A stretch of 44,628 nucleotides of DNA from an uncultured bacterium. Lineage in GTDB: Bacteria > UBA8481. The notes beneath the pieces are model-generated. The model was given only the letters and a program-made list of their open reading frames with translations. It ran no database searches and was not told the DNA's origin. The stretch lies in contig CAZCME010000014.1 of NCBI GenBank assembly GCA_964499705.1, positions 62,001-106,628 on the forward strand, in the 5' to 3' direction. Made by a program: the position numbers and the translations under genes. Of the stretch, positions 1 through 35,457 are shown piece by piece; the first letter of the stretch is position 1; every line of letters begins with the position of its first letter.

Positions 1-486
1 ATCCCGGTGCTCCGCGATCTTGATGTCGAATCTCCCGTGAAACATGGAGTTTGTCCGGGCGGCGACATGGCCGCGGTACAGGACCGCCGGACCCAGGGAG
101 AGGCCGTAGGCGATCGAGTTGAGGAGCGCGGACACGGAAAGACCCAGGAGGTCGCTGTAGGGATACCGGGCGATGAAGAGCATCGACCAGGCGACATGAA
201 AGAGAACGATGCCCATGACGAGCACGATGAGACGCCGGAGCGGCCAGATGCAGGAGAGCAACATGAGGGGCGCCAGGGCGAGCGTAAATCCCATGGAGAG
301 CACGTATCCGTTCGCCGGTTCCTCGAAGAAGAAGAGGACGAGGTTCAGGGCCATCAGCACTCCGAGGATGCCCAGAAGCCAGGAGGCCGACCAGCGATTG
401 CCGAAGGAGAGATCCCGCCGTTCGAAATCCTTCACGTCGCCCTGCATTCCGGCCGTCGCGGCGACGGATGAAATCGTATCGCTCAT
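1..486 (-). CDS. Membrane protein, N-terminal part only (runs off the window); possibly a sensor/signalling protein
   Basis: Read manually, not in the ORF track. ATG at 486 overlaps the TGA of the upstream cyclase (ATGA). The frame is open to position 1: MSDTISSVAAT...WLLGILGVLMALNLVLFFF...LIVLVMGIVLFHVAWSMLFIA..., about 4 hydrophobic helices. Confidence 0.7.
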   Translation of the reverse strand, partial: MSDTISSVAATAGMQGDVKDFERRDLSFGNRWSASWLLGILGVLMALNLVLFFFEEPANGYVLSMGFTLALAPLMLLSCIWPLRRLIVLVMGIVLFHVAWSMLFIARYPYSDLLGLSVSALLNSIAYGLSLGPAVLYRGHVAARTNSMFHGRFDIKIAEHRD

Positions 487-1922
487 TTCGTTCCGACTTC
501 CGCCGCGCAGACCACGCGATTGCGGCCGCGGGACTTGGCGGCATAGAGCGCCATGTCGGCGGCATCGAAGAGCGAGTCGACCTTGTCGACATCGTCGGGA
601 AACGTCGACGTCCCCACGCTCACCGTGATTTTCACGGGCTCCGGCATCGCCTTCCCCGCCTCCCGCTCCACGATCTCCCGGATCCGCTCCGCCATCATCC
701 GCGCTCCGTCCCTGCCGCACTTCGGAAGGATGACCGTGAACTCTTCTCCGCCGTACCGTCCCGCGATATCCACCTTCCGCACCGTCTTCTTCACGAGCTC
801 CGCGACGCGCGCCAGCACCTTGTCGCCGAAAACATGGCCGTGCGTGTCGTTGAACTTCTTGAAGAAATCGATATCGGTGATGATGAGGCTCACCTTCGTC
901 TTGTACCGGAGAGCGCGCTGGCATTCCGATTCGAAGCGGTCGTTGAAATACCACCGGGCGTGCAGCTTCGTCAAGCCGTCATGCATCGCCATCTCGCGCG
1001 TCCGGGCGAAGAGACGGGAGTTGTCGCAGGCGACGGAGGCGACCTGCGCGATGATCGCGAGCAGGCGGAGATCGTCGGTGGAGAACGCGTCCGGTTTCGA
1101 GCCGTGCACCCGCAGGACACCGACGACCTTGCCGCCGACGATGAACGGCGCCGCGATGAGCGACTGGAAGCTGGCGCCGGAAATTCCCTTGAATCGGAAA
1201 TCCCGCGTCACGTCGGAAACCGACAGGACCGACGCCGTCCGGATCACCGCCTGGTTGAATTCATCGTTCGCCAGCGGCTCCGCGGCTTTCCGCAGCGTCT
1301 CGGCGAGATTGGACGCCTGCAGCCGCATCGATCCCTCGTGCGTCAGGAAGAGATGGCAGACTTCTCCACGCACGACCCGCGTCGTCTCCGCGACCACCCG
1401 CGCGGCCACCTCGGTCTCGTCCAGCGAGCTCCCCAGGCTCGACGCCGCCTCCCCCAGCATCCGGAATCGCGCGCCTTTCTCCTCCAGAGCATCGCACCGC
1501 GATTGATGCCGAAGAACCTCCTCCTGCAGCAGGTTGTATTCCTCATCGAGCTGGTTGGCGGAGAGCGTATTGGATTGATGGAGATCCTGCGCGGCCGCGA
1601 AGAAGGCGGAGCCGACCTGCGCCGTCTTGTAGAAGAGAAGCACCTCCGCCACGAGCGCGAGGTTCGTCGTCCACGGCGCCTGCATGGACCGGTACGCGAG
1701 CACCAGCGCCGCGAGCGTCGTGAGACCGAAGGTGAATTCCCGTCCAGTGAAGATTCCCGACCAGATGATCAGGAGGAGAAAGCCATGGGCCAGGGCGACG
1801 GGATTCGAGGAGCGGATGACGTAATTGCTCAGGGGAAAGAAAAGAATCGTCGCGATGAACCCCGCCGAGAGCGGTATGAGAAACGACCGGAACTTCAGCG
1901 TCTCGGTGGAGTAATCGAACAT
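483..1922 (-). CDS. Membrane-anchored GAF-GGDEF diguanylate cyclase
   Basis: N-terminal hydrophobic segments, a coiled coil, a GAF region (SLIAAPFIVGGKVVGVL...FSTDDLRLL), then HDGLTKL, DIDFFKKFNDTHGH and RYGGEEF, with an RKVD I-site. Confidence 0.92.
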   Translation of the reverse strand: MFDYSTETLKFRSFLIPLSAGFIATILFFPLSNYVIRSSNPVALAHGFLLLIIWSGIFTGREFTFGLTTLAALVLAYRSMQAPWTTNLALVAEVLLFYKTAQVGSAFFAAAQDLHQSNTLSANQLDEEYNLLQEEVLRHQSRCDALEEKGARFRMLGEAASSLGSSLDETEVAARVVAETTRVVRGEVCHLFLTHEGSMRLQASNLAETLRKAAEPLANDEFNQAVIRTASVLSVSDVTRDFRFKGISGASFQSLIAAPFIVGGKVVGVLRVHGSKPDAFSTDDLRLLAIIAQVASVACDNSRLFARTREMAMHDGLTKLHARWYFNDRFESECQRALRYKTKVSLIITDIDFFKKFNDTHGHVFGDKVLARVAELVKKTVRKVDIAGRYGGEEFTVILPKCGRDGARMMAERIREIVEREAGKAMPEPVKITVSVGTSTFPDDVDKVDSLFDAADMALYAAKSRGRNRVVCAAEVGTK

Positions 1923-1927
1923 GGGCG

Positions 1928-1985: not shown

Positions 1986-3095
1986 CTAGAAGACCGATTT
2001 CTCCGTCTGAGGATCGAAGACGTGGGCGCTGTCGAGGTTCAGAACCAGCTCGATCTCGCGGTCGATCGTGTATTTTTCCTTCGCCGCGACACGTGCCTGG
2101 ATCTTCTTGTCTCCGACGGCCAGCATCAGGAAAGTCTCCGACCCGACCGGCTCCACAACCTCGATCGTCGCCCGGATGACCCGTTCGTCGGGAGCATCGG
2201 GAAAGAAGAGCTTGTCATGGATCTCCTGGGGACGGATGCCGAAGACGACATCCTTGTTGACGTAACCGGCGTCCTTCAGCTTCTGAGCCTTGTCCGGCGT
2301 GAAGCGGACGTTGATGCCCTCGGTCTGGAAATGAACGTGATCGCCGACCTGGGCGGTGCGGCCCTTCAGGAAGTTCATCGGAGGCGAGCCGATGAATCCG
2401 GCGACGAAGAGATTCGCGGGGTGGTCGTAGATGTCGAGAGGCGCGCCGATCTGCTGCGTCAGGCCGTCCTTCATGACGACGATGATGTTCGCGAGTGTCA
2501 TGGCTTCGAGCTGATCGTGCGTGACGTAGATCATCGTCGTGGCCAGGCGCGTGTGCAGCCGCGCCAGCTCGGTGCGCATCTGCGCGCGGAGCTTGGCGTC
2601 GAGATTGGAGAGGGGCTCGTCGAAGAGGAAGACGCTGGGCTGCCGCACGATCGCTCGCCCGACCGCGACGCGCTGCCGCTGGCCGCCGGACAGGGCTCCG
2701 GGCTTGCGTCCGAGGTAATCGGTGAGCCCCAGCATTTCCGCGGTGGTGCGGACCCGCTTGTCGATCTCCGTGTTCGCGAACTTGCGCATCCGGAGCCCGA
2801 ACGCCATGTTCTCGTAGACCGTCTTGTGGGGATAGAGAGCGTAATTCTGGAAGACCATCGCGATGTTCCGGTCCTGCGCGGGAACATGGTTGACGACCGT
2901 GCCGTCAATCTTCAGTTCCCCGCTGGAGATCTCCTCCAGGCCCGCGATCATCCGCAGCGTCGTCGATTTTCCGCATCCCGACGGACCGACGAGAACGACG
3001 AACTGCTTGTCTTCGATGTTGAGATTGACGTCCTTCACGGCGACGACGTCGCCGGGATACACCTTCTTCACGTCCTTCAGTACGACCGATCCCAT
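1986..3095 (-). CDS. Carbohydrate ABC transporter ATP-binding subunit (MalK/UgpC/MsmX family)
   Basis: GPSGCGKST Walker [19 protein letters not shown] signature, [11 protein letters not shown] Walker [15 protein letters not shown] and a TOBE-type C-terminus. AGGAGG RBS. Confidence 0.96.
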
Positions 3096-3165: not shown

Positions 3166-4506
3166 CTACTCCTTCATCCCGGCATGCGCCATGCCCTTGA
3201 TGACATATTTCTGCAGCAGCACGAACACGACGAGGATCGGCACGATCGTGATCGCCGAAGCCGCCATCATGTTCCCCCACTCGGCGGTGTACTGCTGGCG
3301 GTAGCTTACCAGTCCCAACGGCAGTGTCTTCCACTTTTCATCGTTCAGCATGATGAACGGCCCGAGGAAAGCGTTCCAGTTCGCGAGAAACGTCACGATC
3401 CCCAGCGTCGCCAGGACCGGCTTCGAGAGCGGCAGGACGACATCCCACCAGATCCGGAACTCGCTGCAGCCGTCGATCCGCGCGGCTTCCAGCAGGGAAT
3501 CCGGGAGCTGCCTGATGAACTGCATGCAGAGGAAGACGCCGTACACGCCCGCCAGGCCGGGCAGTATCAGCGACGCCAGGTTATTCAAGAGGCCGAGATT
3601 CTTCATCATCGCGTAGACCGGGATGAGCGTCACCTGGCCCGGGACCATCATCGTCGCCAGGAGCGCGTAAAAAAACGCGTCGCGCCCGATGAATTTTCCC
3701 TTCGCGAAGGCGTATCCGGCCAAGGAACAGAAAATGAGATTCGAGAGCGTCACGAGAACGGCGACGATGAAGGAGTTGATGTAATAGCGCCCGAACCGGC
3801 CTGCAAATCCGTAGATCGCGCGGTCCTCATCCTTCACCTTCAGCACCTGCCTGTAGTTGTCCATCGAGGCCACGAGGTTCTCCGTGACTTCCACTTCATT
3901 CCAGGCGACCGGCAGCGCCATCTTCGTCCGGTTCACGAATGTGAGCCGCACATGGCGGGCCACGATCCTCGGCTCGAAGCGATCCTCGATCGTGAATCCG
4001 TCCTCCGTCGGCGCGCTCCCCGAGTTGATCACCCGCGTATCGGCCCAGGATTTCTCCACGTTGTCGGAGGCGAACTCCAGGATCACCTCCGGCTTCAACC
4101 GCGCCGAAGCGTCGGCGGCGCGGAAGGATTTCAGGGAGACATGGCTGATGCGCGTCGTGCTCCCGAGGTCCAGCAGGAGCGTAATGCCGCTGTCCGGAGG
4201 AAGGACGGGAGAAACCCAGGAGGCATCCGCCATCGCGAAGCCGTCATTCAGGAGTTCGAGCCCATATTCGTTCGTATCGCCCTCGATGACGAACTTCGCC
4301 GCGCCGTTGGCGGCGCCTGCCTTGTTCATCGTGCGCCACGGATGCCACCGCGGCGGACGCGTCGCCAGCTCCGTGTTCGCGTTCTCCGTCATCGACGTGG
4401 AGACCATCCACCAGAACGGCACGATCATGGTGATGGCCACCAGCAGAAGCGCCACGTGGAGAACGGCCGACTGGACCTTTTTTTCGAGCGTATGCAGTTC
4501 GCGCAT
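3166..4506 (-). CDS. Carbohydrate ABC transporter permease (MalG type) with a large inserted extracytoplasmic domain
   Basis: EAARIDGCSEFRIWWDVVLPLSKP EAA motif, NSFIVAV...LAGYAFAK and WNAFLGP. An approximately 150-aa soluble insertion follows TM1. Confidence 0.92.
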   Translation of the reverse strand: MRELHTLEKKVQSAVLHVALLLVAITMIVPFWWMVSTSMTENANTELATRPPRWHPWRTMNKAGAANGAAKFVIEGDTNEYGLELLNDGFAMADASWVSPVLPPDSGITLLLDLGSTTRISHVSLKSFRAADASARLKPEVILEFASDNVEKSWADTRVINSGSAPTEDGFTIEDRFEPRIVARHVRLTFVNRTKMALPVAWNEVEVTENLVASMDNYRQVLKVKDEDRAIYGFAGRFGRYYINSFIVAVLVTLSNLIFCSLAGYAFAKGKFIGRDAFFYALLATMMVPGQVTLIPVYAMMKNLGLLNNLASLILPGLAGVYGVFLCMQFIRQLPDSLLEAARIDGCSEFRIWWDVVLPLSKPVLATLGIVTFLANWNAFLGPFIMLNDEKWKTLPLGLVSYRQQYTAEWGNMMAASAITIVPILVVFVLLQKYVIKGMAHAGMKE

Positions 4507-4518: not shown

Positions 4519-6927
4519 CTATTCCGCGGCCTGGTGGGGCTTCAACCAGAACGCATTGATCGCGGTGATGATCGCGATCATGAAGAAGAGCAGGTAGGCG
4601 ATCGCGGACGCCACGCCGAAATGCTGATTGCCGAACCCGACTTCATACAGGTACGACACGATCGTCTGCATCGACCTCTGCACGCCTCCGCGCATCCCTC
4701 CGAGCACATAGATCTGGTCGAACGCCTGGAGCGCGTTGATCCAGTGGGAGAGGACGATGAAGGTGATGGAGGGTTTCAGGAGCGGCAGCGTCACGTGGAA
4801 GAAGCGGTTCGTCGCGTTCGCTCCGTCGATCCGCGCCGCCTCGTACAGCGACTCCGGAATCGACTGCAGGCCCGCGAGGACGATGATCATCAGGAACCCG
4901 AGCCACCTCCAGGTATCCATGAGAACCAGGGACGGCTTGGAAAGCGACGCGTCGCTGATCCATCCGAGAGGCGCGATGCCGATCACCTCCAGGACATTAT
5001 TGAGGATCCCCTTGTCCCCCGGGTTCAGGATCAGGAGCCAGACGATGGAGATCGCGACGTACGATGTCACGACCGGCATGAAGTAGACGACCTTGAAGAA
5101 GGTCTTGCACATCACGCGCTCGTTGATGAGGACGGCGAGGCCGATCGCCAGGGGGAGCATGACCATCAGTTCCACGACGGCGAGGTACAGCGTGTTCCTG
5201 ACCGAGTTCCAGAATTTCGCGCTCTGCAGGACGAACGCGTAATTCTCCAGTCCCACCACGCCGCGGATGTTGATGCCGTCGGAGGAGACGAAGGAGAGAC
5301 GGAGCGACTCGAAGAGCGGGTAGAGCGTGAAGACGAAGATGAGCAGGATGACGGGCGAGATGAAGACGAACCAGACGCGGCCCGACCGGAATTCCGCGGC
5401 GAGCGACCGGCCGATATGCTTTCGTCGCCAGCTGACCACGGCCCATGTCGAGAGCACGATCGTCACGATGATGAGGACGGAGATCATCGACAGGTTGAGG
5501 AAGAGAATCCCGCGGGAGACTTCCTCCGGGGAATTCGTGACGGAGACGGCGTTGGATTTCAGGAGATGATCGATCTCCGCCGACATCTGCGTGACGGCTT
5601 CATCGGTCGGCACGGCGCCAATCAGCGCGTTCTGGACATATTCGCCCACGATGTTGTAGGTCTCCTCCCAGCACGCGGCCGGGGTGTTGGAGCTCTCCGC
5701 GAACTGCTTCAGGCCGACGTTCCATTCCGGGTGCGCCTGGATGAAATCCCAGTCCCCGAGGTCGTTGCGGGGCGAGAGCGACGCGGTATGCTCCACGATG
5801 TATTTCTGCGCCAGAGGCTCCGACATGAATTTCAGGAACTTGAAGGCCATCTCCTTGTGCGCGCTCTTTTTGTTGATGGAAAGAAAGGATCCTCCCATCA
5901 ATCCGCCGGCGCCTTTCCTCCGGGGTAGATTGCAGACTCCGATCCGGTCGCCGCGCTTGATCGCCCCCTCCTTGATCATCGACGGCACGGTTTCGTAGAT
6001 CGCGTACTTGTTCTCCTGCGACAGGAACGGCCCGAACGTGTTCCAGAGGAAATTGTTCATCGTCTCCGGACCGGAAACATTGTGCGCGACATGGAGATCG
6101 ACGAGGAACTTCAGGGCCTCGCGCGCCTCGGGCGAATCCAGGGCGCTGCGGCTTTCATCCTCCGTGTAAAATCTCCCGCCGTTCTGATACAGGAATCCCA
6201 TGTACATGAAGACGGGATCGAATCCCTGCACCATGTACCCGAACGTCTCTTTTCCGGTGACGGGATCGATGCCGGTCGTCTTCTGAGCCTTATCCAGGAG
6301 TTCTTCCCAGGACATGTCGTCGTGCGGCGGAGCGATTCCGTAATGCTTGAAGATGAGCTTGTCGTAGGCGAGAATCCGGGTATCCGCGACCCACGGCAGG
6401 CCCCAGCACCGCGACTGGCCCGTCTTCGCGTCGCGATGAAGGGCCATCCGGCAGTATTTGTCGTAAAATTTCGAAAAGTCGAATCCTTCCTTCTCGATGA
6501 ACGGAGTCAGGTCTTCGATGGTCTCCTTCGCCACGAACTGGCCGACCCAGGTGGAGCCGAGCATGTACACGTCGGGGCCTTCTCCGATCATCGAAGTCAT
6601 GATCTTCGCGAACGTGTTGTCCCAGCCGATATCGGAGAAGTCGATCTTGACCCCCGGATTCTGTTTCTCGAACTCGTCGAAGACATTGTGGATACCCGGA
6701 TGAAATTCTCCGTCGACGGTCCGGTCGGCAAAGGCGTATCCCATCATCCAAACCTTCAGGACGATGGGCTCTTCCGCCTGCAGCGGCGGCGCGCCGGAGA
6801 GGGAAAGCAGCAGGACGCCGATCAGCAGGAACGCGAACATGCAGAAGATCCGCTTCCATGATGAGCGTGAAGCGCGGGTCTCGTGTTGAGGACGGGCGTG
6901 CCTGGAATTTCGGCCTTCTGATTTCAC
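4519..6927 (-). CDS. Fused sugar-binding protein (SBP family 1) and MalF-type ABC permease
   Basis: Start placed at GTG 6927, which has a GGAGG RBS and a GTGA overlap with the upstream stop (ATG 6840 is an alternative). A hydrophobic leader is followed by SBP motifs (EFEKQNPGVKI, GPDVYML, WGLPW, AFKFLKFM), then permease motifs (GLENY, AGLQSIPESLYEAARIDGA, ALQAFDQIY) in one frame. Confidence 0.9.
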   Translation of the reverse strand: MKSEGRNSRHARPQHETRASRSSWKRIFCMFAFLLIGVLLLSLSGAPPLQAEEPIVLKVWMMGYAFADRTVDGEFHPGIHNVFDEFEKQNPGVKIDFSDIGWDNTFAKIMTSMIGEGPDVYMLGSTWVGQFVAKETIEDLTPFIEKEGFDFSKFYDKYCRMALHRDAKTGQSRCWGLPWVADTRILAYDKLIFKHYGIAPPHDDMSWEELLDKAQKTTGIDPVTGKETFGYMVQGFDPVFMYMGFLYQNGGRFYTEDESRSALDSPEAREALKFLVDLHVAHNVSGPETMNNFLWNTFGPFLSQENKYAIYETVPSMIKEGAIKRGDRIGVCNLPRRKGAGGLMGGSFLSINKKSAHKEMAFKFLKFMSEPLAQKYIVEHTASLSPRNDLGDWDFIQAHPEWNVGLKQFAESSNTPAACWEETYNIVGEYVQNALIGAVPTDEAVTQMSAEIDHLLKSNAVSVTNSPEEVSRGILFLNLSMISVLIIVTIVLSTWAVVSWRRKHIGRSLAAEFRSGRVWFVFISPVILLIFVFTLYPLFESLRLSFVSSDGINIRGVVGLENYAFVLQSAKFWNSVRNTLYLAVVELMVMLPLAIGLAVLINERVMCKTFFKVVYFMPVVTSYVAISIVWLLILNPGDKGILNNVLEVIGIAPLGWISDASLSKPSLVLMDTWRWLGFLMIIVLAGLQSIPESLYEAARIDGANATNRFFHVTLPLLKPSITFIVLSHWINALQAFDQIYVLGGMRGGVQRSMQTIVSYLYEVGFGNQHFGVASAIAYLLFFMIAIITAINAFWLKPHQAAE

Positions 6928-10272: not shown

Positions 10273-10286
10273 TGCAATCGCTTGCG
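10273..10286. promoter_or_regulatory. LacI-family operator-like site TGCAATCGCTTGCG
   Basis: Near-palindrome with central CG, just downstream of the predicted -10 of the phosphorylase/ABC operon. Confidence 0.65.
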
Positions 10287-24447: not shown

Positions 24448-24485
24448 TGCAATCGTTTGCATAACTCTTCTGAACCCTGTATGAT
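24448..24485 (+). promoter_or_regulatory. LacI-type operator overlapping the -35 of a sigma70 promoter
   Basis: TGCAATCGTTTGCA at 24448-24461; TTGCAT (24457-24462), 17 bp, TATGAT (24480-24485). Confidence 0.72.
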
Positions 24486-30500: not shown

Positions 30501-30609
30501 GGATGTTAAAAACGATGACGGTCGCGAGCTCGCCTCGGGGATCTACATCGCCGTCATCAAATCCGGCAACGGCGAAATCGTGACGAGGAAGATCATGGTG
30601 GTGCGGTGA
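24556..30609 (+). CDS. Large secreted multidomain glycoside hydrolase: GH157-like TIM barrel, CBM11-like module, 8 FN3/Ig repeats, further Ig domains and a FlgD-Ig/T9SS-like C-terminus
   Basis: Signal peptide; FWNFGNEENY, HPIASANGD, GANVYRGNTF, SEHGCDAYN, EDQAMQ, DEWWK and NEEWFGI. CBM-like FSFWARS...WQRIFVP...IYIDDI. C-terminal IYPNPF...IYNTAGRRV...WDVKNDDGRELASGIY. Confidence 0.85.
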   Translation: MLESRRFLLLLVLSGLGFSFLIPPAHSGATQVTVSGRKLLVDGVPWTARGSAYASTPVGQGGGYKWWKNTTQTYKQDFPYLKAMNANSFRTYDPVERDAIVDSAAAHGLYIIMGLYPPGGSDWSNASTQDLLRKQFKNMIRQHKDNPAILFWNFGNEENYDGFSLSAWYSLLNAAAGDGHAEDTFHPIASANGDINDLGSAGNLSNDASMTNLDIWGANVYRGNTFGSLFASYPALSAKPLWFSEHGCDAYNAVSVSEDQAMQNTALRNQIHQIRKNQSDDSSGVMIGASQFEFLDEWWKYSGGTNAAHNTENSSVNANYSDPAFNEEWFGIVAIDAGGLNRVPRTAYYTMRDSFALWNAATKLKVLARGNAAAGETVIVSVWALDDSNRVSRGHNGAVTVSFTELGTKSANSLRKGGTALTFESGVASTWIVDTELEQVKIDATAGGLTAAPSQTISFGDLLLYGNRYGEGHQPPWAVAVGGGDALSHDHRASDIAMAEGDMGLKLTYTKAGGGAFAVEYMEDATYPMNAAPFDTFSFWARSSIAGLSFTVRCIESTYGAGDIAEKVVTVTSANSWQRIFVPKSSFTINAGAGGNGIMNWHNLVQSFGLVTPSASATIYIDDIRWTADSGSLSSAIETPVIMTVTAASDTAARFRAPARIDTAAAGDTVWFASETQVVSLTVTFASQAADSLRVSAVFDSAFQQDNSSPFTAQFFIKARHTTDTFVTITVSDTLGQFDTMLLRLRCDSVPPDTVAHVKPLAGAFDTSRPTFVWSKSADSGIGVRFYRLELSNGPLFSSILTTETTSHPDSDLTLASSLTESIYYWRILAEDSVGNVRTSGAAVDSFIIDSTSPSAARGIAPAQGFETRATTIAFIWSASADSLSGLAGYRLQISTSQSFSAPFVDSLTGNVTACTTAVQGKDTCFWRIVAIDNAGNRTNGPDSWFVLDTTPPVAPAPALPAAATETRQTSILFTWSSASDTQAGLLEHRLQIDTSGSFTALLVDSSTGAATSASRTLAANDTWYWRVYAIDDVGNTVASTPARIVLIDTIPPTAPVITYPKGDSSTSPIALLWNASVDTHSGLRRYRVQVDTSGSFTTNILDAYQATDDSTVNLGTDTYFWRLIAEDDAGCTAVSSTETFVVRGAADTTPPSSFSLTLPLNNHETTSTRLLFRWSNALDSTPPVTYRLIIDTDLAGTFIADTTVSDTVVTVMLPANDTYLWRVIATDLAGNTTAIGNFSLLVDTAPPAAPTIAAPRNGDTKISPVSFQWNASSDSLAGFRRFRIQVSRDSAFTATITVDSFQPSDDTTLSLATDTYFWRLITEDDLGNSIAISPESFVVVTSPDTSPPAAFSLSAPANATETNALIIRFSWTASSDSSSPISYRLIVDTDFSGFFTVDTTIAATSATVLLPANDSYAWKVIAIDNVGNTTTVGNFSLVVDLQAPSVPALVSPIGGATITSLVALDWSVCVDSLSGLAGYRLVIDTDILFAAPHAVDSVVTAPDTVVILSADTWLWQIIAFDDLGNSSIATDSFVIPSVDTAPPVFLGASASPSSVSNAGTTIVTFTVLTRDSTVVAQVVANLLPIGRADSTPFAFVSDSLWTLAVLFDTAVSGDTYDLVIRSLDAMNNTGTTTIRVIVTDASPTLATIVDSPLKEVKVAGNAVSIVASIADTYSSVRFEYRPEGGAWTPVATSVGSNPDTVGPFWSIYWNTTGLADGNYDVRAVATDLSGGIDTTPSVVRVVISQSDSSVHEYRDTATARHVRRQRFFPDSAGQLLIADGGTALTVPRGAVADSVWIAASALDTAPETAPIGPNLAAVSGGTFRSFIREDGLRTFSSSLDLVLPYADTDANNDNVGLTSHEEKMLAIYHWDEALGVWIREPTSEVDPVSNVVRARVSHFTIFAVLVGQAAASNLGGIIIYPNPFVPLDARDANGKPFNAADPTSGIIFDSLTVTASIDIYNTAGRRVSTFSKSSGDARYQWDVKNDDGRELASGIYIAVIKSGNGEIVTRKIMVVR
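26797..29172 (+). repeat. Eight tandem approximately 100-aa FN3/Ig-like coding repeats
   Basis: Each unit reads D(T/S)xPP...W..(S/A).D...YR(L/I/V)..DT...F...DTYxW(R/K)xxAxDxxGN. Confidence 0.85.
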
Positions 30610-30610: not shown

Positions 30611-31693
30611 ATGACCGTGCGCGTCGGTGTCGTCGGCACGAGCTGGTGGGCGGACGGGATGCACCTGCCGTCCCTGGCCAGCCACGACGGCGCCGTCATC
30701 GCGGCCCTCTGCGGGCGGGATCGGAAACGCGCGGAGGAAATGGCGGCCAGGCATGGCGCGAAAAAAGTCTTCACCGACTGGAAGACCATGCTGGAAGCGA
30801 ACGTCCTCGACGCGGTCATCATCGCCGTTCCGGACGAGCTCCATCATCCCATCGCCATGGCCGCCCTGAAACGCGGCCTCCACGTTCTTTGCGAGAAGCC
30901 GCTCGGCCTGGATGCACGGCAGGCGCACGAGATGTATGCGCTGTCCCGTGAGAAGAAACGGATCACGATGACCTATTTCACATTCCGCTGGCTCGTCCAG
31001 TCGGAGGAAATGAAGAGGCTCGTCGACGAAGGTTTCGTCGGGAAGATTCAATACGCGCATTTCGCGTTCCTGGCCGGCGGGAGCCGCGGCGGCTGGAAGG
31101 AGAACTGGCGCTATGACCAGCGGAAGGCCAATGGTGCGCTCGGGGATTACGGCTCGCACATGATCGACATGGCGCGATGGTTGTGCGGGGAAATCTCCAC
31201 CGTGAGCGCCCACCTGGCCACGTTCACAAAACCTCCTCACGGTGCGGATGTATCGCAGGCGAACGAGGCCGCGATCCTTTCGGTCGCCTTCGAGAATGGT
31301 GCGCAGGGCACGATCCGCGCGTCGAACATGGAGCTTGTCCGCCACGACGGATTCGAGCTGCACGCCGAAGTCTGCGGCGACGCGGGACGGATGGACCTGC
31401 GGGTGGATATGAGCGGAGCGACGCTCCGGGGCGCCCGCAACGGCGATGCGGAGTCGCGCGAACTCATGATCCGCCCGGACATTCTCCGGGATGTCGACCT
31501 CCGGCTCGGCATCGTGGATCAGAAGCGGCAGATCTTCAGGCGCCGATCCTCCGGCGTGCGCGGTTTCATCGACGCCATCCTGGAAGGCAGACCGGCCGTC
31601 CCCGACTTCCGCGACGGGTGGCTCGCCCAGGTTGTGATGGATGCCGCCATCGATTCCGACACGACCGGACGCAGGATCGCGATCGGAAGTTGA
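30611..31693 (+). CDS. Gfo/Idh/MocA-family NAD(P)-dependent oxidoreductase
   Basis: VRVGVVGT Rossmann start, DAVIIAVPDELH, GLHVLCEKP, GALGDYGSHMID and PDFRDG. Starts 1 nt after the giant gene. Confidence 0.92.
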   Translation: MTVRVGVVGTSWWADGMHLPSLASHDGAVIAALCGRDRKRAEEMAARHGAKKVFTDWKTMLEANVLDAVIIAVPDELHHPIAMAALKRGLHVLCEKPLGLDARQAHEMYALSREKKRITMTYFTFRWLVQSEEMKRLVDEGFVGKIQYAHFAFLAGGSRGGWKENWRYDQRKANGALGDYGSHMIDMARWLCGEISTVSAHLATFTKPPHGADVSQANEAAILSVAFENGAQGTIRASNMELVRHDGFELHAEVCGDAGRMDLRVDMSGATLRGARNGDAESRELMIRPDILRDVDLRLGIVDQKRQIFRRRSSGVRGFIDAILEGRPAVPDFRDGWLAQVVMDAAIDSDTTGRRIAIGS

Positions 31694-31745
31694 TAAGTAT
31701 CCCCGAGCGTTCTCCTGTAGAAGCACGGCGGATCCGCCCGACGCC

Positions 31746-31837
31746 ATGTAAGATCTTACATTTCCCGCGTATGTCCCATGTAAGCGCTTACAATAATCAA
31801 CAATCGCCTTGCACGAGGGCGACAGCGATAATAATAT
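31746..31837 (+). promoter_or_regulatory. Two TGTAAG-NN-CTTACA palindromes upstream of a sigma70 promoter
   Basis: ATGTAAGATCTTACAT (31746-31761) and TGTAAGCGCTTACA (31779-31792) are both perfect palindromes; TTGCAC (31809-31814), 17 bp, TAATAT (31832-31837). Confidence 0.7.
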
Positions 31838-31916: not shown

Positions 31917-33326
31917 ATGTCTCGATCCTTCCCCTTCCTGTCCCTGCTCCGGCGCAACCGGTTGCCGGCAATGCTGCTGGTCGCCGTCGTCTTTCTCGTG
32001 ACCGTATCCTGCGGCCGCAATCTTGATGAGCGATCCGAGGATGGCCGCATCGTTCTTCACTACTGGGAAAAGTGGACCGGCTTCGAGGGGGACGCGATGA
32101 AGGCGGTCGTGGACGACTACAACAAGTCCCAGGACAGGGTCTTCGTCAAGATGAGCACGGTCTCCGGTATCGACAGGAAGCTCCTCGTCGCCGTCGCGGG
32201 CGGCGATCCGCCGGATATCGCGGGGATCTGGAGCTGGGCGGTCAATATCTACTCCGACAAGGGCGCGATCATGCCGATCACGGAGCGGCTCGCGGCAGTC
32301 GGCATCAAGCGCGAGAATTACGTCCCCGTCTTCTGGGATCTCTGCTCGCATCGCGGCAAGACCTGGGCTCTGCCGTCCACGGTCGCGACGGTCGCTCTGC
32401 ACATCAACCGCCGCCTCCTCCGCGAAGCCGGCATCGATCCGAATTATCCGCCGAAGACGATCGCGGAACTGAACGCGATGAATGACACGTTGACGATCTA
32501 CGAGCTGTCCAACGGGGAACGGAAATCCTATAACCAGTTGGGCGGCAAGCCTCCCGCTGACGCGAAGATCATCCAGATGGGGTTTCTCCCCTTCGAGCCC
32601 GGCTGGTTCGACTGGGCATGGGGGCACTGGTTCCATGGACAACTCTGGAACGGCAAGGATAAGATCACCAGCGCCCATGTGGGCAACGTCGCGGCGATGA
32701 AGTGGTATCAGTACATCATGCGCCGATACGGGCCCGACCAGATCGAGCTCTTCTTCAACGGCTTCCGCGGAAACTTCGCCACGTCCACGAACGCTTTCTT
32801 CTGCGGCAAGATCGCCATGGTGATGCAGGGCGTCTGGATGTACAACTTCATCGACAAGTACTCGTCCGGCATGGACTGGGCGGCCGCGCCGATTCCATCC
32901 GTGGACGGCGAAGGGCCGGTCACCATCGTGGAATGCGACGTGCTCGCGATCCCCACGGGATGCCGCCATCCCGAGGAGGCTTTCGAATTCATCCGTTACG
33001 TCAACTCCCAGGCCGCCATGGAGAAACTGGCGATGGGGCAGCGGAAGTTCTCCCCCCTCGTGGATGTGACTCCTGAATTCTACGCGAAGCACCCCAACCA
33101 GTACATCAAGCTCTTCCGCCAGCTCGCGGAAAGCCCCTGGACCTGCTCCACGCCCGCCTCGGGAATCTGGAACGAGTACCAGCGCGAGCTCAATAACGTC
33201 ATCGACCAGGTGCGCCGGTTGAAGATCGAGCCGGAAGCCGGCCTCACCGATCTCCAGGCGCAGATGCAGGACAAGCTCGACCGGGAAATCGTCCGGTTGA
33301 AGCGGAGAGGCATGATCGAGCCATGA
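31917..33326 (+). CDS. Sugar ABC transporter substrate-binding lipoprotein
   Basis: Lipobox VTVSC; YWEKWTGFEG, AGGDPPDIA, WALP, GKIAMVMQGVW and EEAFEFIRY. Start uncertain (31854, 31917 or 31971). Confidence 0.9.
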   Translation: MSRSFPFLSLLRRNRLPAMLLVAVVFLVTVSCGRNLDERSEDGRIVLHYWEKWTGFEGDAMKAVVDDYNKSQDRVFVKMSTVSGIDRKLLVAVAGGDPPDIAGIWSWAVNIYSDKGAIMPITERLAAVGIKRENYVPVFWDLCSHRGKTWALPSTVATVALHINRRLLREAGIDPNYPPKTIAELNAMNDTLTIYELSNGERKSYNQLGGKPPADAKIIQMGFLPFEPGWFDWAWGHWFHGQLWNGKDKITSAHVGNVAAMKWYQYIMRRYGPDQIELFFNGFRGNFATSTNAFFCGKIAMVMQGVWMYNFIDKYSSGMDWAAAPIPSVDGEGPVTIVECDVLAIPTGCRHPEEAFEFIRYVNSQAAMEKLAMGQRKFSPLVDVTPEFYAKHPNQYIKLFRQLAESPWTCSTPASGIWNEYQRELNNVIDQVRRLKIEPEAGLTDLQAQMQDKLDREIVRLKRRGMIEP

Positions 33327-34219
33327 GCGGGATGACGGGAATGGAGAAGAGAAACATGATGAAGGGCCTTCTCTTCATCTCGCCCTACATCGTCGGCTTC
33401 TCCCTCTTCACGGCCTACCCCATCCTCATATCCGTCTATTACAGTTTCTGCGATTATTCCGTCCTGGAGCCGCCCGTCTGGATCGGGCTCGACAATTACA
33501 AGGTGCTCATGCAGGACGGCATCTTCTGGAAGTCGCTCTGGAACACCTTCATCTTCGCGGCCTTCTCCATCCCCATGGGCATCATCGCGGCCGTGATGCT
33601 GGCGCTTCTGCTGCACACGAAAATCAAGCTCACGTCCTTCTTCCGCACGGTCTTCTTCCTTCCGTCTCTCGTCCCGATCGTCGCGATGTCGATCATGTGG
33701 ATGCGCATCTTCAACCCGGAAGTCGGCATCCTGAACGGCATTATTCATTTCCTCACCGGGCTCGAAGGCCCCAACTGGCTGGGCGATGAGTCGTGGGCGA
33801 AGCCCGCCCTCATAATGATGACGCTGTGGGGCGTCGGCAATGCGATCGTGACGTACCTGGCCGGATTGCAGGAAATCCCGGAGAGCCTCATCGAGGCCGC
33901 GCAGCTCGACGGCGCCAACGCCTTCCAGCGAACCATCCACGTGACCCTTCCGATGCTCTCGCCCGTCATCTACTTCAATTTCATCATGGGCATCATCGGC
34001 AGTCTCCAGGTCTTCGCCCAGTCCTACATCATGACCGGCGGCGGCCCCGCTCGCTCCACGCTCTTCTACACCTATTACCTCTACCAGAAAGCCTTCGAGG
34101 ATTATCAGATGGGTTACGCCTCCGCCATGGCGTGGATCCTCTTCGCTGTCATCCTTGTCCTCACCGTCTGGGCGCAGCACATCTCCAAGAAATACGTGTA
34201 CTACCGGGGCGGAGCATGA
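33323..34219 (+). CDS. Sugar ABC transporter permease (MalF type)
   Basis: WIGLDNY, FWKSLWNT, YLAGLQEIPESLIEAAQLDGA and MGYASAMAW. Confidence 0.95.
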   Translation: MSGMTGMEKRNMMKGLLFISPYIVGFSLFTAYPILISVYYSFCDYSVLEPPVWIGLDNYKVLMQDGIFWKSLWNTFIFAAFSIPMGIIAAVMLALLLHTKIKLTSFFRTVFFLPSLVPIVAMSIMWMRIFNPEVGILNGIIHFLTGLEGPNWLGDESWAKPALIMMTLWGVGNAIVTYLAGLQEIPESLIEAAQLDGANAFQRTIHVTLPMLSPVIYFNFIMGIIGSLQVFAQSYIMTGGGPARSTLFYTYYLYQKAFEDYQMGYASAMAWILFAVILVLTVWAQHISKKYVYYRGGA

Positions 34220-35457
34220 TCAGCCGATCGAGTCCGCAGGCGAACAGGTTTCTCGTCTACTTTCTGCTCGTCCTCATCTCCATCGCCTTCCTTACGCCGA
34301 TGCTCTGGATGCTCGGGACGTCGTTGAAGCCCCTGGAGCAGACGACGTCGAAGCAGTTCTCCTTCCTGCCCCGCATCGCCTACGTCGACATCGACGGCCA
34401 GGTGCACAAGGTCCGGGTCGATGACGAGCCGATTCCGGCGGACGGGTCCATCGTGGAGATCCTCGACGGCCCGAAGAAGGGCGAGAAGATGTACCTGCCG
34501 AAGAGCGAGTTCGACGGAACATACGCGATGCTCGAAATGCAGGTCGCGGACCGGATCATGCGCGACACGTTTCCGGCGAAGGCCCTGAAGGAAGTTCATG
34601 CCGGATGGTATCGCGTCGTGGAGAAGGTCGACCAGTACAAGGAAGGCGCGCGCGCCTGGACGATCGTGCCGCAGGGCGATATCGAGCAGCGTGTGGAGTT
34701 CCAGTGGAGCAACTACGCGGAGGCGACGAAGTTCATTCCCTTCAAGAATTACGTCGCCAACACGCTCATCATGGCGATCCTGGGAATGATCGGCACGGTC
34801 CTTTCGAGTTCCGTCGTGGCCTATGGATTCTCCCGGATCGACTGGCGCGGGCGCGATCAGATCTTTCTCGTGGCGCTGGCGACGATGATGATACCGTTCC
34901 CCGTTACCATGATCCCGCTCTACGGGGTCTTCAAGCAACTGGGCATGATAGGAACTTTTCAACCGCTCTGGGTTCCCACGTTCCTGGGCACCGGCTTTGA
35001 AAGTTTCTACCGCGATTTCTTCAGCAAGATCGGATCGCTGCAGCCGCTCTGGCTCCCCTGCTGGTTCGGATCCGCGTTCAACATATTCCTCCTGCGGCAG
35101 TTCTTCATGACGATTCCCAAGGACATTTCCGAAGCGGCGCGCATCGACGGGTGCAACGAATTCCAGATCTTCGCGACGATCATCCTTCCGCTGGCCCGGC
35201 CCGCCATGGTGGTCGTCGCCCTCTTCCACTTCATCTGGGCGTGGAACGAGTTCCTGCTTCCGCTCATCTATCTCTCGAACGCCGATTTCTTCACGCTCTC
35301 GATCGGCCTGCAGGCCTATCAGAGCCGGGCGGGCGGCATCGAGTGGCACTTCCTGATGGCGGCCTGCGTCCTGACGATCCTCCCGATCATCGCGCTCTTC
35401 TTCGCCGCGCAGAAAACCTTCGTCCAGGGGATCGCGATGTCGGGGATGAAGGAGTAG
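34216..35457 (+). CDS. Sugar ABC transporter permease (MalG type) with inserted soluble domain
   Basis: ATGA overlap at 34216; FQWSNY, VAYGFSRI, IFLLRQFFMTIPKDISEAARIDG and WNEFL. Confidence 0.93.
   Translation: MISRSSPQANRFLVYFLLVLISIAFLTPMLWMLGTSLKPLEQTTSKQFSFLPRIAYVDIDGQVHKVRVDDEPIPADGSIVEILDGPKKGEKMYLPKSEFDGTYAMLEMQVADRIMRDTFPAKALKEVHAGWYRVVEKVDQYKEGARAWTIVPQGDIEQRVEFQWSNYAEATKFIPFKNYVANTLIMAILGMIGTVLSSSVVAYGFSRIDWRGRDQIFLVALATMMIPFPVTMIPLYGVFKQLGMIGTFQPLWVPTFLGTGFESFYRDFFSKIGSLQPLWLPCWFGSAFNIFLLRQFFMTIPKDISEAARIDGCNEFQIFATIILPLARPAMVVVALFHFIWAWNEFLLPLIYLSNADFFTLSIGLQAYQSRAGGIEWHFLMAACVLTILPIIALFFAAQKTFVQGIAMSGMKE

Follow-up and report, generated by a model that had tools for sequence, protein, structure and literature searches.

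A candidate LacI-repressed beta-1,3-glucan regulon with ABC importers in a bacterial host without SusC/D

Which polysaccharide is served by a bacterial locus that combines two phosphorylases, four other glycosidases and two ABC importers, and do its units act together? The original prediction for this window (the whole stretch of 44,628 nucleotides that was analysed) placed such a locus at 483-35457 and proposed a single substrate, beta-1,3-glucan. Its inventory agrees with our results: there are two phosphorylases predicted to be cytoplasmic (GH161 and GH94, both without a signal peptide), four further hydrolases (GH158, a GH50-like lipoprotein, GH2 and a secreted 2017-aa enzyme with a clan GH-A barrel), two CUT1-type ABC systems (1986-6843 and 31917-35457) and one LacI gene within the span (10508-11515), and family scans of the window ORFs found no TonB-dependent receptor. 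The span contains the glucan genes, but it also contains genes that are unrelated to them:

483-1922, GAF-GGDEF gene
12146-13659, ABC-2 exporter
13853-15112, membrane protein of 419 aa
20962-21606, adenylate kinase

Long ORFs on the opposite strand (for example, 468-3158, 3184-5928 and 6942-9755, all plus) were rejected as genes; they are shadow frames without a family match. With a probability of about 0.6, we consider the locus to be a regulon under LacI repression that serves the breakdown of beta-1,3-glucans, for instance laminarin, callose or the glucan of fungal walls, in a host without SusC/D.

The first importer operon opens with the GH161 gene:

6924..10187, minus, signal-less homologue of GH161 beta-1,3-glucan phosphorylases, 1087 aa
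4519..6843, minus, SBP-permease fusion, 774 aa, one stop-free frame (SBP_bac_1 6e-33, BPD_transp_1 5e-15)
3166..4506, minus, MalG/UgpE-type permease, 446 aa (BPD_transp_1 8e-21 at aa 262-439)
1986..3095, minus, MalK/UgpC-type ABC ATPase with OB/TOBE tail (ABC_tran 5e-34, OB_MalK, TOBE_2)

The GH161 protein matches PDB entries 9qqk, a GH161 phosphorylase (E 1.4e-195), and 9h8v (1.2e-195, aa 5-996). GH149 was rejected for this protein, as its model scored only 82 bits versus a cut-off of 1150. In the fusion protein, a signal peptide and a solute-binding protein are followed by an additional transmembrane helix and a MalF/UgpA-type permease; the protein has full-length matches in one frame in nine genomes. 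One of these, G004, is of the same taxonomic order, and the operon with the fused binding protein is conserved there. The 446-aa permease has an insert of ~190 aa between TM1 and TM2 that is possibly discoidin-like, judging from a weak F5_F8_type_C match (E 0.0017; Atlas lead 0.83); the AF2 model (pLDDT 54) is unusable, and among 61 genomes searched only the G004 orthologue has it in common. The ATPase scores 475 bits with the NCBIfam UgpC subfamily model (cut-off 432). No other CUT1 ATPase is encoded in the window, and both importers probably rely on this one.

The other enzymes and the second importer are encoded as follows:

15069..17411, minus, GH94 phosphorylase, 780 aa, no signal peptide
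17666..18874, minus, GH158 beta-1,3-glucanase homologue, 402 aa (9oro E 7e-101, 6pal 2e-65)
18890..20836, minus, GH50-like lipoprotein, 648 aa (5z6p 3e-36, 4bq2 1.4e-33)
21773..24373, plus, GH2 glycosidase without a signal peptide, 866 aa (N, middle and C domains of Pfam GH2)
24556..30609, plus, secreted 2017-aa protein with a signal peptide, a barrel of clan GH-A at aa 28-362, an Ig-like middle part and a C-terminal sorting domain of T9SS type
30611..31693, plus, GFO/IDH/MocA oxidoreductase (Pfam 4e-26), starting 2 nt past the 2017-aa gene
31917..33326, plus, second CUT1 solute-binding protein, likely a lipoprotein by its sequence (SBP_bac_8 1e-20, SBP_bac_1 5e-20)
33323..34219, plus, MalF/UgpA-type permease of the second importer (BPD_transp_1 1.7e-19; UgpA model 108 bits)
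34216..35457, plus, MalG/UgpE-type permease of the second importer, ~130-aa insert after TM1 (BPD_transp_1 3e-17)

The GH158 protein aligns with GH158(Pro), a metagenome enzyme (PDB 9ORO), at 341 bits across 396 residues. In contrast to GH158(Pro), it lacks a signal peptide, and its start lies ~32 residues further along; its stop-bounded open frame is 407 aa, too short upstream to encode one, and its sequence thus places it in the cytoplasm. Ten of the 11 residues named for GH158(Pro) in the available text of PMC13195107 are kept, namely both catalytic Glu, W77, the R104-D382 salt bridge of the tunnel, W236, F278, K283, E285 and G380; the exception is Y291, which is replaced by F. The main product of GH158(Pro) is laminaribiose, and it also cuts oat beta-glucan, G3G4G and G4G3G4G (PMC13195107). 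The family and key residues would suggest that the window enzyme is a homologue of the same processive, laminaribiose-releasing type.

The GH50-like protein (lipobox LISAC) matches the catalytic domains of agarases, and its catalytic NE and E motifs line up with theirs. It has a catalytic barrel (aa ~44-440) followed by a C-terminal stretch of ~200 aa without an assigned domain, and it lacks the CBM-like N-terminal part found in agarases. GH50 includes beta-1,3-glucanases, PaBglu50A and Fsa16295Glu (GH50_3), which share the barrel and the motifs (PMC11079163). Fsa16295Glu is likewise exported without a CBM-like N-terminal part, but it has a TAT signal where the window protein has a lipoprotein signal. 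The C-terminal stretch is an addition relative to these glucanases, with the comparison made at the family level and not at that of GH50_2 or GH50_3.

The 2017-aa protein had been assigned to GH157. A single-sequence search gave no GH157 chain at E <= 0.01, and a profile search of the PDB with the barrel placed GH158 (5.9e-28) and LaGH157 (2.4e-23) nearest. Taken together, the profile search and the fold comparison (AF2 pLDDT 89.8) gave a tie among LaGH157, GH158 and GH2, including a fold Z of 31.8 to GH2 glucuronidases. The barrel family has 1828 representatives, and 18 of 20 aligned members also match Pfam GH72. G004 has a full-length orthologue that is 49% identical. The best PDB match of the GH2 protein is a beta-mannosidase (5n6u, 4e-43). 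The levoglucosan dehydrogenase model gave the GFO/IDH/MocA protein 135 bits, below its cut-off of 650, and this identity was rejected.

The GH94 protein has good Pfam matches (catalytic domain 2.7e-76, 257 bits; supersandwich 1.3e-26, 94 bits), but it scores 64.7 bits with a characterised laminaribiose phosphorylase (6ggy) versus ~250 bits with each of the chitobiose, cellobionate and cellobiose phosphorylases. By sequence, it is a member of a clade without characterised enzymes and is not near laminaribiose phosphorylase. At 17 metagenome loci with members of this clade (11 at >=48% identity, six of those with flanks of several kb), GH158, GH161 and GH50 were absent nearby; genes annotated there encode GH29 fucosidases (2 loci), a sulfatase, GH31, GH43, HAD and LacI. 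GH94 may also be transcribed apart from GH158, because the 254-bp spacer between them holds a terminator-like hairpin (17561-17544). Therefore, the claim that four families point to one substrate was overstated: GH161 and GH158 are firm, but GH157 is not borne out, GH94 is distant from laminaribiose phosphorylase and the GH50-like protein is placed at the family level only.

The units are connected by a LacI-type palindrome, TGCAANCGNTTGCA, that recurs at the promoter of each unit (palindromes are given without strand):

10508..11515, plus, LacI-family repressor, divergent from the GH161 operon (Pfam LacI 1e-7, Peripla_BP_3 6e-32)
10273..10286, operator-like palindrome TGCAATCGCTTGCG, 1 mismatch, just downstream of the GH161-operon -10
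10323-10296, minus, GH161-operon promoter-like site, 10/12
10347-10360 and 10414-10427, operator-like palindromes, 1 and 2 mismatches, flanking the LacI promoter-like site
10370-10398, LacI promoter-like site, 11/12
20863..20876, operator-like palindrome AGCAAGCGCTTGCA, 1 mismatch, straight after the -10 of 20911-20882
20911-20882, promoter-like site heading GH50-GH158(-GH94), 11/12
21687-21700, weak operator-like site near the GH2 gene, 2 mismatches
24448..24461, perfect palindrome TGCAATCGTTTGCA, 0 mismatches, overlapping the -35 of 24456-24485
24456-24485, promoter-like site ahead of the 2017-aa gene, 9/12
31747..31792, TGTAAGATCTTACA and TGTAAGCGCTTACA, two variants of the palindrome ahead of the second-importer genes, the latter variant with 2 mismatches to the motif

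At <=2 mismatches the window has 11 sites versus 1.29 expected, and none of 100 shuffles reached 11. Each of the 11 precedes a gene of the locus or lies at its 5' edge, and four lie inside or beside the best sigma-70-like promoters. At <=1 mismatch, seven of the 19 sites in the genome fall inside the window, which is 1% of the genome. The pairing of the window LacI with particular sites is unsure because LacI paralogues at 43649 and on contig C23 are accompanied by near-identical operators; the one at 43649 has three palindrome sites of its own. On contig C4, a perfect operator site precedes a GH17-like gene and a GFO oxidoreductase.

The clustering of the glucan genes is not chance, because a GH161 match and a strong GH158 match occur just once each in the genome and are 7.5 kb apart, and because of the share of operator-like sites in the window noted above. 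The whole genome (96% complete) has no SusD match and two TonB Plug matches; the host is an uncultured bacterium of a scarcely studied candidate phylum and probably a diderm, and no outer-membrane uptake component was identified. A synteny check, proposed with the original prediction, found no conservation of the cluster, either in relatives or at other GH161 and GH158 loci. In G002 and G004, the GH94, GH158, GH161 and 2017-aa homologues are on separate contigs without window-type neighbours. Of 80 GH161 loci in other phyla, 6 have GH94 close by, 9 have LacI and 9 have a MalK-like gene, and none has GH158, GH50, GH2 or a 2017-aa-type protein in its neighbourhood. Seven other GH158 loci have neither GH94 nor GH161 within 10 kb.

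As a beta-1,3-glucan regulon, the locus would work as follows. Outside the cell, the GH50-like surface lipoprotein and the T9SS-tailed 2017-aa enzyme, with its GH157/GH158-like barrel, would cut the polymer. The oligosaccharides would cross the outer membrane and then be taken up by the CUT1 importer with the SBP-permease fusion and MalK-type ATPase, an architecture that is clear and whose substrate is presumed. In the cytoplasm, GH161 would release glucose-1-phosphate from chains of DP >=3, as characterised PapP does, and the signal-less GH158 would, like GH158(Pro), cut chains processively to laminaribiose. The adjoining GH94 might phosphorolyse the disaccharide to glucose-1-phosphate and glucose, a step proposed from context and the weakest of the scheme. 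Glucose-1-phosphate would enter glycolysis via phosphoglucomutase (the genome has two PGM/PMM genes). Judging from the site positions, LacI would bind the palindromes at the promoters and be released by an oligosaccharide inducer. By their operator sites, the second importer, the GH2 and the oxidoreductase of GFO type would be part of the regulon too, and they may act on side chains or a related glycan. The predicted route from secreted or surface glucanases through ABC import to cytoplasmic phosphorolysis fits the localisation signals, the GH161 and GH158 families and the common operator.

Enzyme sets of this kind had been called best known from SusC/D loci, which overlooks GH161 genes that adjoin ABC transporters and the GH94-GH161 tandems described by Kuhaudomlarp et al. 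in 2019, with a sequential-degradation model (PMC6484121). In the Gram-positive clusters (Paenibacillus polymyxa PapP and Acholeplasma laidlawii), as in the window, a cytoplasmic GH161 is found by CUT1-type genes with GH94 nearby; GH161 shortens chains of DP >=3 to the disaccharide, which a second enzyme splits (PMC6484121). As far as the available text describes these clusters, the window differs in having no GH1, GH3 or GH30 beta-glucosidase, in its additional cytoplasmic GH158, GH50-like lipoprotein, T9SS-tailed giant enzyme, GH2 and GFO oxidoreductase, in the fusion of binding protein and permease, in its probable candidate-phylum diderm host and in a MalK-type ATPase inside the operon, which most published GH161 clusters do not have (PMC6484121). 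Its GH94 clade also differs from that of the characterised laminaribiose phosphorylases. Bacteroidota PULs (B. uniformis BuGH158 and B. cellulosilyticus GH157 GUL-1) are likewise co-regulated clusters in which GH158/GH157-type surface endo-glucanases begin breakdown and a GH2 that acts on beta-1,3-gluco-oligosaccharides is among the exo-enzymes that follow (PMC10229575). However, their end steps are hydrolytic, whereas those of the window would be phosphorolytic, and the window has an intracellular GH158, a LacI-type regulator and ABC importers in place of a SusC/SusD pair.

Several results count against a beta-1,3-glucan locus: the distance, clade context and possible separate transcription of GH94, the lack of conservation of the cluster, the beta-mannosidase match of GH2, the GH157 assignment that was not borne out, the unsure pairing of LacI with its sites and the failure to identify an outer-membrane uptake component. 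In a rival, composite reading, beta-1,3-glucan is the substrate of just the GH50-GH158 pair and the operon of GH161 and its importer, and the plus-strand block, perhaps with GH94, serves one or more other glycans and is merely co-located under similar LacI-type operators. The GH2 match to a beta-mannosidase, the dispersal of the units in relatives, the fold tie of the barrel with GH2 glucuronidases, the variant palindromes at the second importer (TGTAAG..CTTACA) and the separate sites of the 43649 LacI agree with this, as do the fucosidases, sulfatase or GH43 beside the GH94 clade elsewhere. We consider such a composite unlikely, though, as the perfect core operator ahead of the 2017-aa gene is the motif found at GH161 and GH50, the barrel is nearest to GH158 and LaGH157 and most of its aligned family members match GH72, all three beta-1,3-glucan families, and the published GH2 acts on beta-1,3-gluco-oligosaccharides.

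Less probable still is a mixed-linkage beta-1,3/1,4-glucan (lichenan or cereal type) or branched heteroglucan, in which GH158 would cut beside 1,3 links and a cellobiose-phosphorylase-like GH94 would take a 1,4-linked or other disaccharide. The mixed-linkage substrates of GH158(Pro) and the GH94 scores would suit this, but GH94 is about equally far from every characterised specificity, so that similarity does not favour cellobiose; GH161 enzymes characterised to date use beta-1,3 chains (PMC6484121), and the scan of window ORFs turned up neither GH5, GH9 or GH26 nor any family of lichenase type. Finally, GH161 and GH94 acting in reverse could build a cytoplasmic beta-1,3-glucan from glucose-1-phosphate, with GH158 mobilising the store. 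These phosphorylases are reversible and have been applied to in vitro synthesis, GH158 is predicted to be cytoplasmic, and 71 of the 80 GH161 loci (Omnitrophota, Planctomycetia and Chloroflexi) have no MalK-like match. Nevertheless, we regard storage as very improbable: GH161 heads an importer operon, repression by LacI-type proteins is a usual feature of catabolic operons, the regulon includes secreted and lipoprotein hydrolases, glucose is no starting acceptor for PapP (PMC6484121), and the literature consulted describes no bacterial cytoplasmic beta-1,3-glucan store.

In conclusion, a scheme of ABC-fed GH161 with GH94 was already published in 2019 (PMC6484121), and what is new here is that palindromes link the units of the locus, which would probably act as one LacI-repressed beta-1,3-glucan regulon in a host without SusC/D.

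We read the locus as a LacI-controlled regulon for beta-1,3-glucan catabolism and put the probability of this reading at roughly 0.6. In the proposed route, a lipoprotein and an enzyme with a type IX secretion (T9SS) tail would cleave the glucan outside the cell, and ABC import would follow. In the cytoplasm, the GH161 enzyme would carry out phosphorolysis to the disaccharide while, in parallel, the GH158 enzyme would cut to laminaribiose; the GH94 enzyme would then phosphorolyse the disaccharide. The last step would fall to a phosphoglucomutase, and the genome has two PGM/PMM genes. The genes and their families are listed below; the activities are predicted from them, and the specificity of the GH94 enzyme is the weakest link of the pathway.

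Genes of the locus and its surroundings (coordinates, strand, product)
483-1922 (-), GAF-GGDEF gene, after the MalK-type ATPase gene
1986-3095 (-), MalK-type ATPase
3166-4506 (-), MalG-type permease
4519-6843 (-), fused binding-protein/permease gene
6924-10187 (-), GH161
10508-11515 (+), LacI, divergent from GH161
12146-13659 (-), ABC-2 type exporter, regarded as unrelated to the locus
13853-15112, 419-aa membrane protein, regarded as unrelated to the locus
15069-17411 (-), GH94
17666-18874 (-), GH158
18890-20836 (-), GH50-like lipoprotein
20962-21606 (-), adenylate kinase
21773-24373 (+), GH2
24556-30609 (+), secreted 2017-aa protein
30611-31693 (+), GFO/IDH/MocA oxidoreductase
31917-33326 (+), binding protein of the second importer
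33323-34219 and 34216-35457 (+), permeases of the second importer

Because the G+C content is high, the window contains numerous long shadow ORFs. A frame was accepted only with family or structure-sequence support, and N-termini were inspected directly. The following ORFs have no family match, are overlapped by genes with strong matches, and were rejected as shadow frames: 468-3158, 3184-5928, 6942-9755, 17564-18673, 18701-20134 and 20953-21699 on the plus strand, and 10184-11518, 11457-12803, 21797-24043, 24352-25371, 30593-32050, 31797-33092, 33080-34180 and 34201-35349 on the minus strand.

The surroundings of the locus have some features of their own. Directly after the second importer (35464-36148, -) are a Fic/DOC-family gene (137 aa) and, just upstream of it, a MazE/AbrB-type antitoxin-like gene, which are probably a toxin-antitoxin pair. 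Further on (36130-41227, -) are genes for an aldo/keto reductase, a CARDB-domain protein, an NMN-adenylyltransferase/NAD-kinase-like protein and a nicotinate phosphoribosyltransferase, which look unrelated to the locus. The window and its edge have three genes for GGDEF proteins (diguanylate cyclases), all on the minus strand (483-1922, about 1-590 and 42338-43543), and two of them are in tandem and adjoin the MalK gene. Just upstream of the window (locus L105, contig C14 positions 42001-62000, locus coordinates 15785-19979) a 676-aa protein has a clan GH-A barrel that shares 27% identity with that of the 2017-aa protein, and a further GGDEF gene and a LacI-type gene lie there too. The neighbourhood of glycan genes may extend about 4 kb upstream, beyond the window.

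The GH161 assignment is secure. The protein matches two solved GH161 entries at E about 1e-195 over almost its whole length, for example the 'gh161 phosphorylase' 9qqk at 1.4e-195 over aa 5-996, while with the GH149 equivalog model it reaches only 82 bits, the cut-off being 1150. The N-terminus of the family is matched by the full ORF and not by the 987-aa gene call in the protein collection. An alignment of 22 sequences has many invariant D, H and R columns; passages of Kuhaudomlarp et al. 2019 (PMC6484121) describe a catalytic Asp and a phosphate-binding His conserved across GH161, GH94 and GH149. The family is large, with at least 1729 proteins at E <= 1e-20 among 8000 candidates scored, and of 600 stretches matched in species-representative genomes, 591 encode a relative.

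The GH158 assignment is likewise secure, with E values of 7e-101 to GH158(Pro), a processive GH158 (9oro), and 2e-65 to BuGH158 (6pal). The catalytic Glu pair aligns as the equivalents of E143 and E229, in GNE and TEFG motifs. According to PMC13195107, GH158(Pro) is a processive beta-1,3-glucanase with laminaribiose as its main product, and its determinants are the catalytic E143 and E229, then W77, F278, Y291, W236, E285, K283 and G380, and a tunnel salt bridge R104-D382. Ten of these 11 are identical in the HMMER alignment with the window enzyme, Y291 being replaced by F, and the four residues of the processive cluster (R104, D382, E285 and W236) are all conserved; the numbering of the paper equals the SEQRES chain index plus 8, as derived from the two catalytic Glu. 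The frame is stop-bounded at 407 aa and its start coincides with that of the mature enzyme. It therefore has no signal peptide, and the enzyme is predicted to be cytoplasmic. GH158 is present in eight of the 401 genomes searched.

The GH94 protein passes both Pfam domains of its family, catalytic and supersandwich (PF17167, 257.4 bits, cut-off 27; PF06165, 94.1 bits, cut-off 23), and DWND, which we take to be the catalytic motif of GH94, is invariant across the alignment of its clade. A laminaribiose phosphorylase of the PsLBP/ACL0729 type was rejected on homology, since the solved enzyme 6ggy gives only 64.7 bits, whereas the chitobiose, cellobionate and cellobiose phosphorylases give 251, 244 and about 243. 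From its context, the protein may still work as a laminaribiose phosphorylase. The protein is in a separate clade. Of 7998 candidates scored, 121 match at E <= 1e-30; about 100 of these are 42-74% identical, and then identity drops to <=38%. The members are labelled hypothetical protein or cellobiose phosphorylase and come from Kiritimatiellae, Lentisphaerae, Verrucomicrobiota and Clostridia MAGs. On the minus strand, the 254-bp spacer between GH158 and GH94 (17412-17665) has a hairpin that resembles a terminator (17561-17544), and GH94 may therefore be uncoupled in part; the palindrome scan of the window found no operator-like site in this spacer. Another contig of the source genome has a LacI gene followed by a GH94 paralogue that is 33% identical to the window enzyme, with an operator-like site just upstream (L131, contig C23 positions 1-10000).

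Of the two exported enzymes, the GH50-like protein has a lipobox, LISAC. Its barrel matches the catalytic halves of agarases (5z6p, 2.7e-36; 4bq2, 1.4e-33), the acid/base NE aligning as 'tdNE' with 'idNE' and the nucleophile E as 'itEf' with 'igEf', and the HWF and R..DGEN motifs are conserved (residues as named in PMC11079163). These features place the barrel in GH50. An N-terminal CBM-like part is missing, as it also is from the beta-1,3-glucanase Fsa16295Glu described in that paper, and the protein may be either a glucanase or an agarase.

The second exported enzyme, the 2017-aa protein, starts with a signal peptide and a clan GH-A barrel (aa 28-362), continues with Ig-like stretches and ends in a T9SS-type domain. 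The original prediction assigned it to GH157, and the tests of the barrel disagree or tie, so this call is neither confirmed nor excluded. A single-sequence PDB search gave no GH157 chain at E <= 0.01, only marginal matches at 1e-4. The barrel family has 1828 representatives at E <= 0.001 (314 at <= 1e-30), and a 20-sequence profile of it ranks GH158(Pro) first (5.9e-28), LaGH157 (9fz9, identified from Foldseek entry titles) second (2.4e-23), and then GH2 glucuronidases and GH72 glucanosyltransferases; all 20 aligned members match Pfam GH2_C and 18 match GH72. With the AF2 model of the barrel (pLDDT 89.8), Foldseek puts LaGH157 on top (9.7e-18, TM 0.70), with GH2 and GH158 entries within one order of magnitude, and VIA-align gives LaGH157 a Z of 31.8 (311 residues, rmsd 3.0), tied with a GH2 glucuronidase at 31.8. 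The best Atlas look-alike of the N-terminus, at 0.82, counts only as a lead, as do all below the 0.9 level. The barrel is a clan-A module that resembles GH157 and GH158, and most plausibly a beta-1,3-glucanase.

The C-terminal domain scores 31.6 bits with TIGR04183 (cut-off 23) and 27.4 bits with PF18962 (cut-off 27). Tails of this T9SS type occur 20 times in the genome, and many belong to giant ORFs, the longest of 9673 aa; giant frames of this kind were seen on contigs C1, C8, C16, C23, C26 and C27. The genome also has a PorV-like ORF (33.6 bits versus 27) and a sub-threshold SprA-like one (97.8 bits versus a cut-off of 200).

Both importers are of the CUT1 type, with an SBP_bac_1-type binding protein and two BPD_transp_1 permeases, and a single gene for a MalK-type ATPase with a regulatory tail is present for the two systems, the second having no ATPase gene of its own. 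The imported substrate and its passage through the outer membrane are inferred. In the first importer, a single gene encodes both the binding protein and the MalF-type permease, in the order binding domain, extra hydrophobic helix, basic cytoplasmic stretch and usual first permease helix; this predicted topology is a sensible one if the binding domain is tethered in the periplasm. An assembly artefact can be rejected as the source of the fusion, because all four relatives of the order, and several unrelated genomes as well, have full-length matches in one frame and free of stops. In the partner permease (3166-4506), TM1 is followed by an insert of about 190 aa (aa about 50-232). It weakly resembles a discoidin (F5/8 type C) domain, with a Pfam E of 0.0017 and an Atlas score of 0.83, and its AF2 model, with a mean pLDDT of 54, is too poor to test the fold. 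Among the matches listed from 61 genomes, the orthologue in the same-order relative G004 is the only other full-length one that covers the insert, and the rest cover the C-terminal membrane core only. G004 keeps the fused gene, the insert-bearing permease and MalK in order on one contig (66%, 57% and 73% identity). The other MalG-type permease (34216-35457, +) also has a large insert after TM1 (aa about 40-175).

The earlier statement that the locus has no SusC/D pair holds. No TonB-dependent receptor occurs among the window ORFs, and genome-wide (96% complete) there are no matches to PF07980 (SusD) and two to PF07715 (Plug), both on other contigs. Membership in a Bacteroidota-type PUL was rejected, there being no adjacent SusC-like TonB-dependent transporter with a SusD-like lipoprotein.

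The transcription units appear to be linked by their control regions. The intergenic regions carry CG-centred palindromes of the LacI/GalR type, and the pattern TGCAANCGNTTGCA, with <=2 mismatches, occurs 11 times in the window versus 1.29 expected, a number reached in none of 100 shuffles. All 11 sites are ahead of, or at the 5' edge of, a locus gene.

Operator-like sites and promoter-like hexamer pairs in the window
10273, site preceding the GH161 operon
10347 and 10414, sites preceding LacI
20863, site preceding GH50-GH158
21687, site preceding GH2
24448, perfect site preceding the 2017-aa gene
31779 and 31953, sites preceding the second importer
43640, 43735 and 43793, sites preceding the second LacI gene at the window's end
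10323-10296, promoter-like, 10/12, ending 10 nt before the 10273 site
20911-20882, promoter-like, 11/12, ending 6 nt before the 20863 site
10370-10398, promoter-like, 11/12, between the two LacI sites
24456-24485, promoter-like, overlapping the 24448 site

The best sigma-70-like hexamer pairs of the region sit right beside these sites. Since the promoter and operator of GH50 lie between it and the adenylate kinase gene, the latter is outside the GH50 unit. The LacI protein (10508-11515) has LacI HTH and Peripla_BP_3 domains, and such a repressor together with CG-centred palindromic putative operators at promoters is what would be expected of a LacI/GalR regulon; the arrangement supports co-regulation of the units through shared predicted operators, with a putative oligosaccharide inducer. 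In the whole genome, 19 sites have <=1 mismatch, and seven of them are in the window; among the rest are sites ahead of the LacI and GH94 paralogue pair on contig C23 and ahead of a GH17-like gene, accompanied by a GFO oxidoreductase gene, on contig C4. At the latter (L134, contig C4 positions 11000-19500), a perfect palindrome, TGCAAGCGCTTGCA, lies at locus coordinate 4263, at the 5' end of the GH17-like gene, which adjoins a GFO/IDH/MocA oxidoreductase gene; a beta-1,3-glucan-type enzyme is thus paired with a GFO oxidoreductase as in the window. The second LacI-family gene (43649-44626, +) runs off the contig end, and of the three palindromes around its start (43640-43806) one is perfect, TGCAAACGTTTGCA. 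Several LacI paralogues are present, and more than one of them is a candidate for binding each predicted operator.

The host was placed from RpoB match labels only, because no 16S rRNA gene was found in the genome. The window is the final 44.6 kb of contig C14 (G+C 58-64%) in a 4.67-Mb MAG of 45 contigs that is 96% complete. Its RpoB is 100% identical to its own record, and 87% and 83% to metagenome proteins without a name. Next come MAG proteins with the labels Candidatus Lindowbacteria (78%) and Candidatus Hydrogenedentota (77%), which NCBI places in Candidatus Lindowiibacteriota and the FCB group, respectively; beyond these, identity is <=68%. The genome collection has three genomes of the same family and one of the same order, after which kinship falls to 'same domain'. 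The rapid drop in RpoB identity and the small number of related genomes indicate a rare, essentially unstudied lineage. The host probably has an outer membrane. Among the papers listed as matches for Lindowbacteria, none has the word in its title or abstract.

The gathering of these genes in one neighbourhood is specific to the source genome, as no surveyed locus or relative shares it. In the GH161 loci of other phyla (the 80 best, of which 52 are at least 15 kb long; neighbour homologues counted at >=50% coverage), most of them labelled Omnitrophota, Planctomycetia, Chloroflexi or Paenibacillus, GH94 is found near GH161 in six, LacI in nine, a MalK-like gene in nine and the second-system permeases in four each; GH158, GH50, GH2, the 2017-aa protein and both binding proteins are in none of the 80. 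GH158, GH161 and GH50 are absent from all 17 metagenome loci of the GH94 clade, and seven further GH158 loci have no GH94 or GH161 within 10 kb. The relatives G002 and G004 have homologues of GH94 (57% identity), GH158 (43-48%), GH161 (39-42%) and the 2017-aa protein (49%, full length), on separate contigs and away from the remaining genes of the window. Conserved gene order thus gave no independent support to a common function at the GH161, GH94-clade and GH158 loci or on the contigs of the two relatives. The functional linkage rests instead on family specificities, localisation, the fit of products to substrates and the shared operators.

A composite locus that serves more than one glycan would fit some of the individual genes, and we consider it unlikely. 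The GH2 protein, which has no signal peptide, has a beta-mannosidase as its best solved relative (4e-43), and a GH2 acting on beta-1,3-gluco-oligosaccharides is reported in PMC10229575. At the 17 GH94-clade loci, the annotated neighbours include a GH29 fucosidase directly upstream in two; LacI, a sulfatase, HAD phosphatases, GH31 and an ABC system with GH43 are further neighbours. In those two (L112 and L114), the GH94-clade gene is directly downstream of a GH29 alpha-L-fucosidase gene with HAD-type phosphatases nearby; L114 also has a sulfatase and GH31, and L112 a second GH94 and a heparinase II/III-like protein. This context hints that the substrate of the clade may not be a plain glucan disaccharide. 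That the real substrate is a mixed-linkage glucan seems to us quite improbable.

We give very little weight to a synthetic or storage role. In such a role the locus would do more than catabolism: the signal-less GH158 of the processive type, GH161 and the uncharacterised GH94 clade would turn over a beta-1,3-glucan in the cytoplasm, building it from glucose-1-phosphate and mobilising it later. GH161 is very common in MAGs of Omnitrophota, Planctomycetia and Chloroflexi, usually without the window's transporter and GH neighbours (L003-L082). If true, a storage cycle would explain this widespread transporter-less GH161, and bacteria would have their own equivalent of chrysolaminarin or paramylon storage.

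For the catabolic regulon, the core idea is already in print for Gram-positive bacteria. Passages of PMC6484121 report that bacterial GH161 genes co-localise with beta-glucosidases and ABC transporters, and describe GH94-GH161 tandems for which sequential action of both enzymes is proposed. Unlike those clusters, the window locus is in another host lineage, with a probable outer membrane, and is without GH1/GH3 glucosidases. It adds an intracellular GH158 of the processive type and exported GH50-like and GH157/158-like enzymes, one of them T9SS-tailed; its GH94 is from an uncharacterised clade; and it has a tethered binding protein, a permease insert and an explicit predicted operator set. Our literature search found no paper that treats both GH161 and GH158.

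Laminarin and other beta-1,3-glucans make up a major carbon pool, and their use by bacteria is known mostly from Bacteroidota SusC/D loci and a few Gram-positive ABC clusters. None of the present findings overturns the current understanding. If our reading is correct, the locus would merge parts of both schemes in a nearly unstudied lineage, with exported enzymes, ABC import and energy-saving phosphorolysis, and without SusC/D. It also offers a transporter design in which one permease is fused to the binding protein and the other contains an additional domain, and three enzyme targets: the uncharacterised GH94 clade (about 100 clusters at >=42% identity), the GH157/GH158-like barrel family with its 1828 representatives, and the intracellular GH158 of the processive type.
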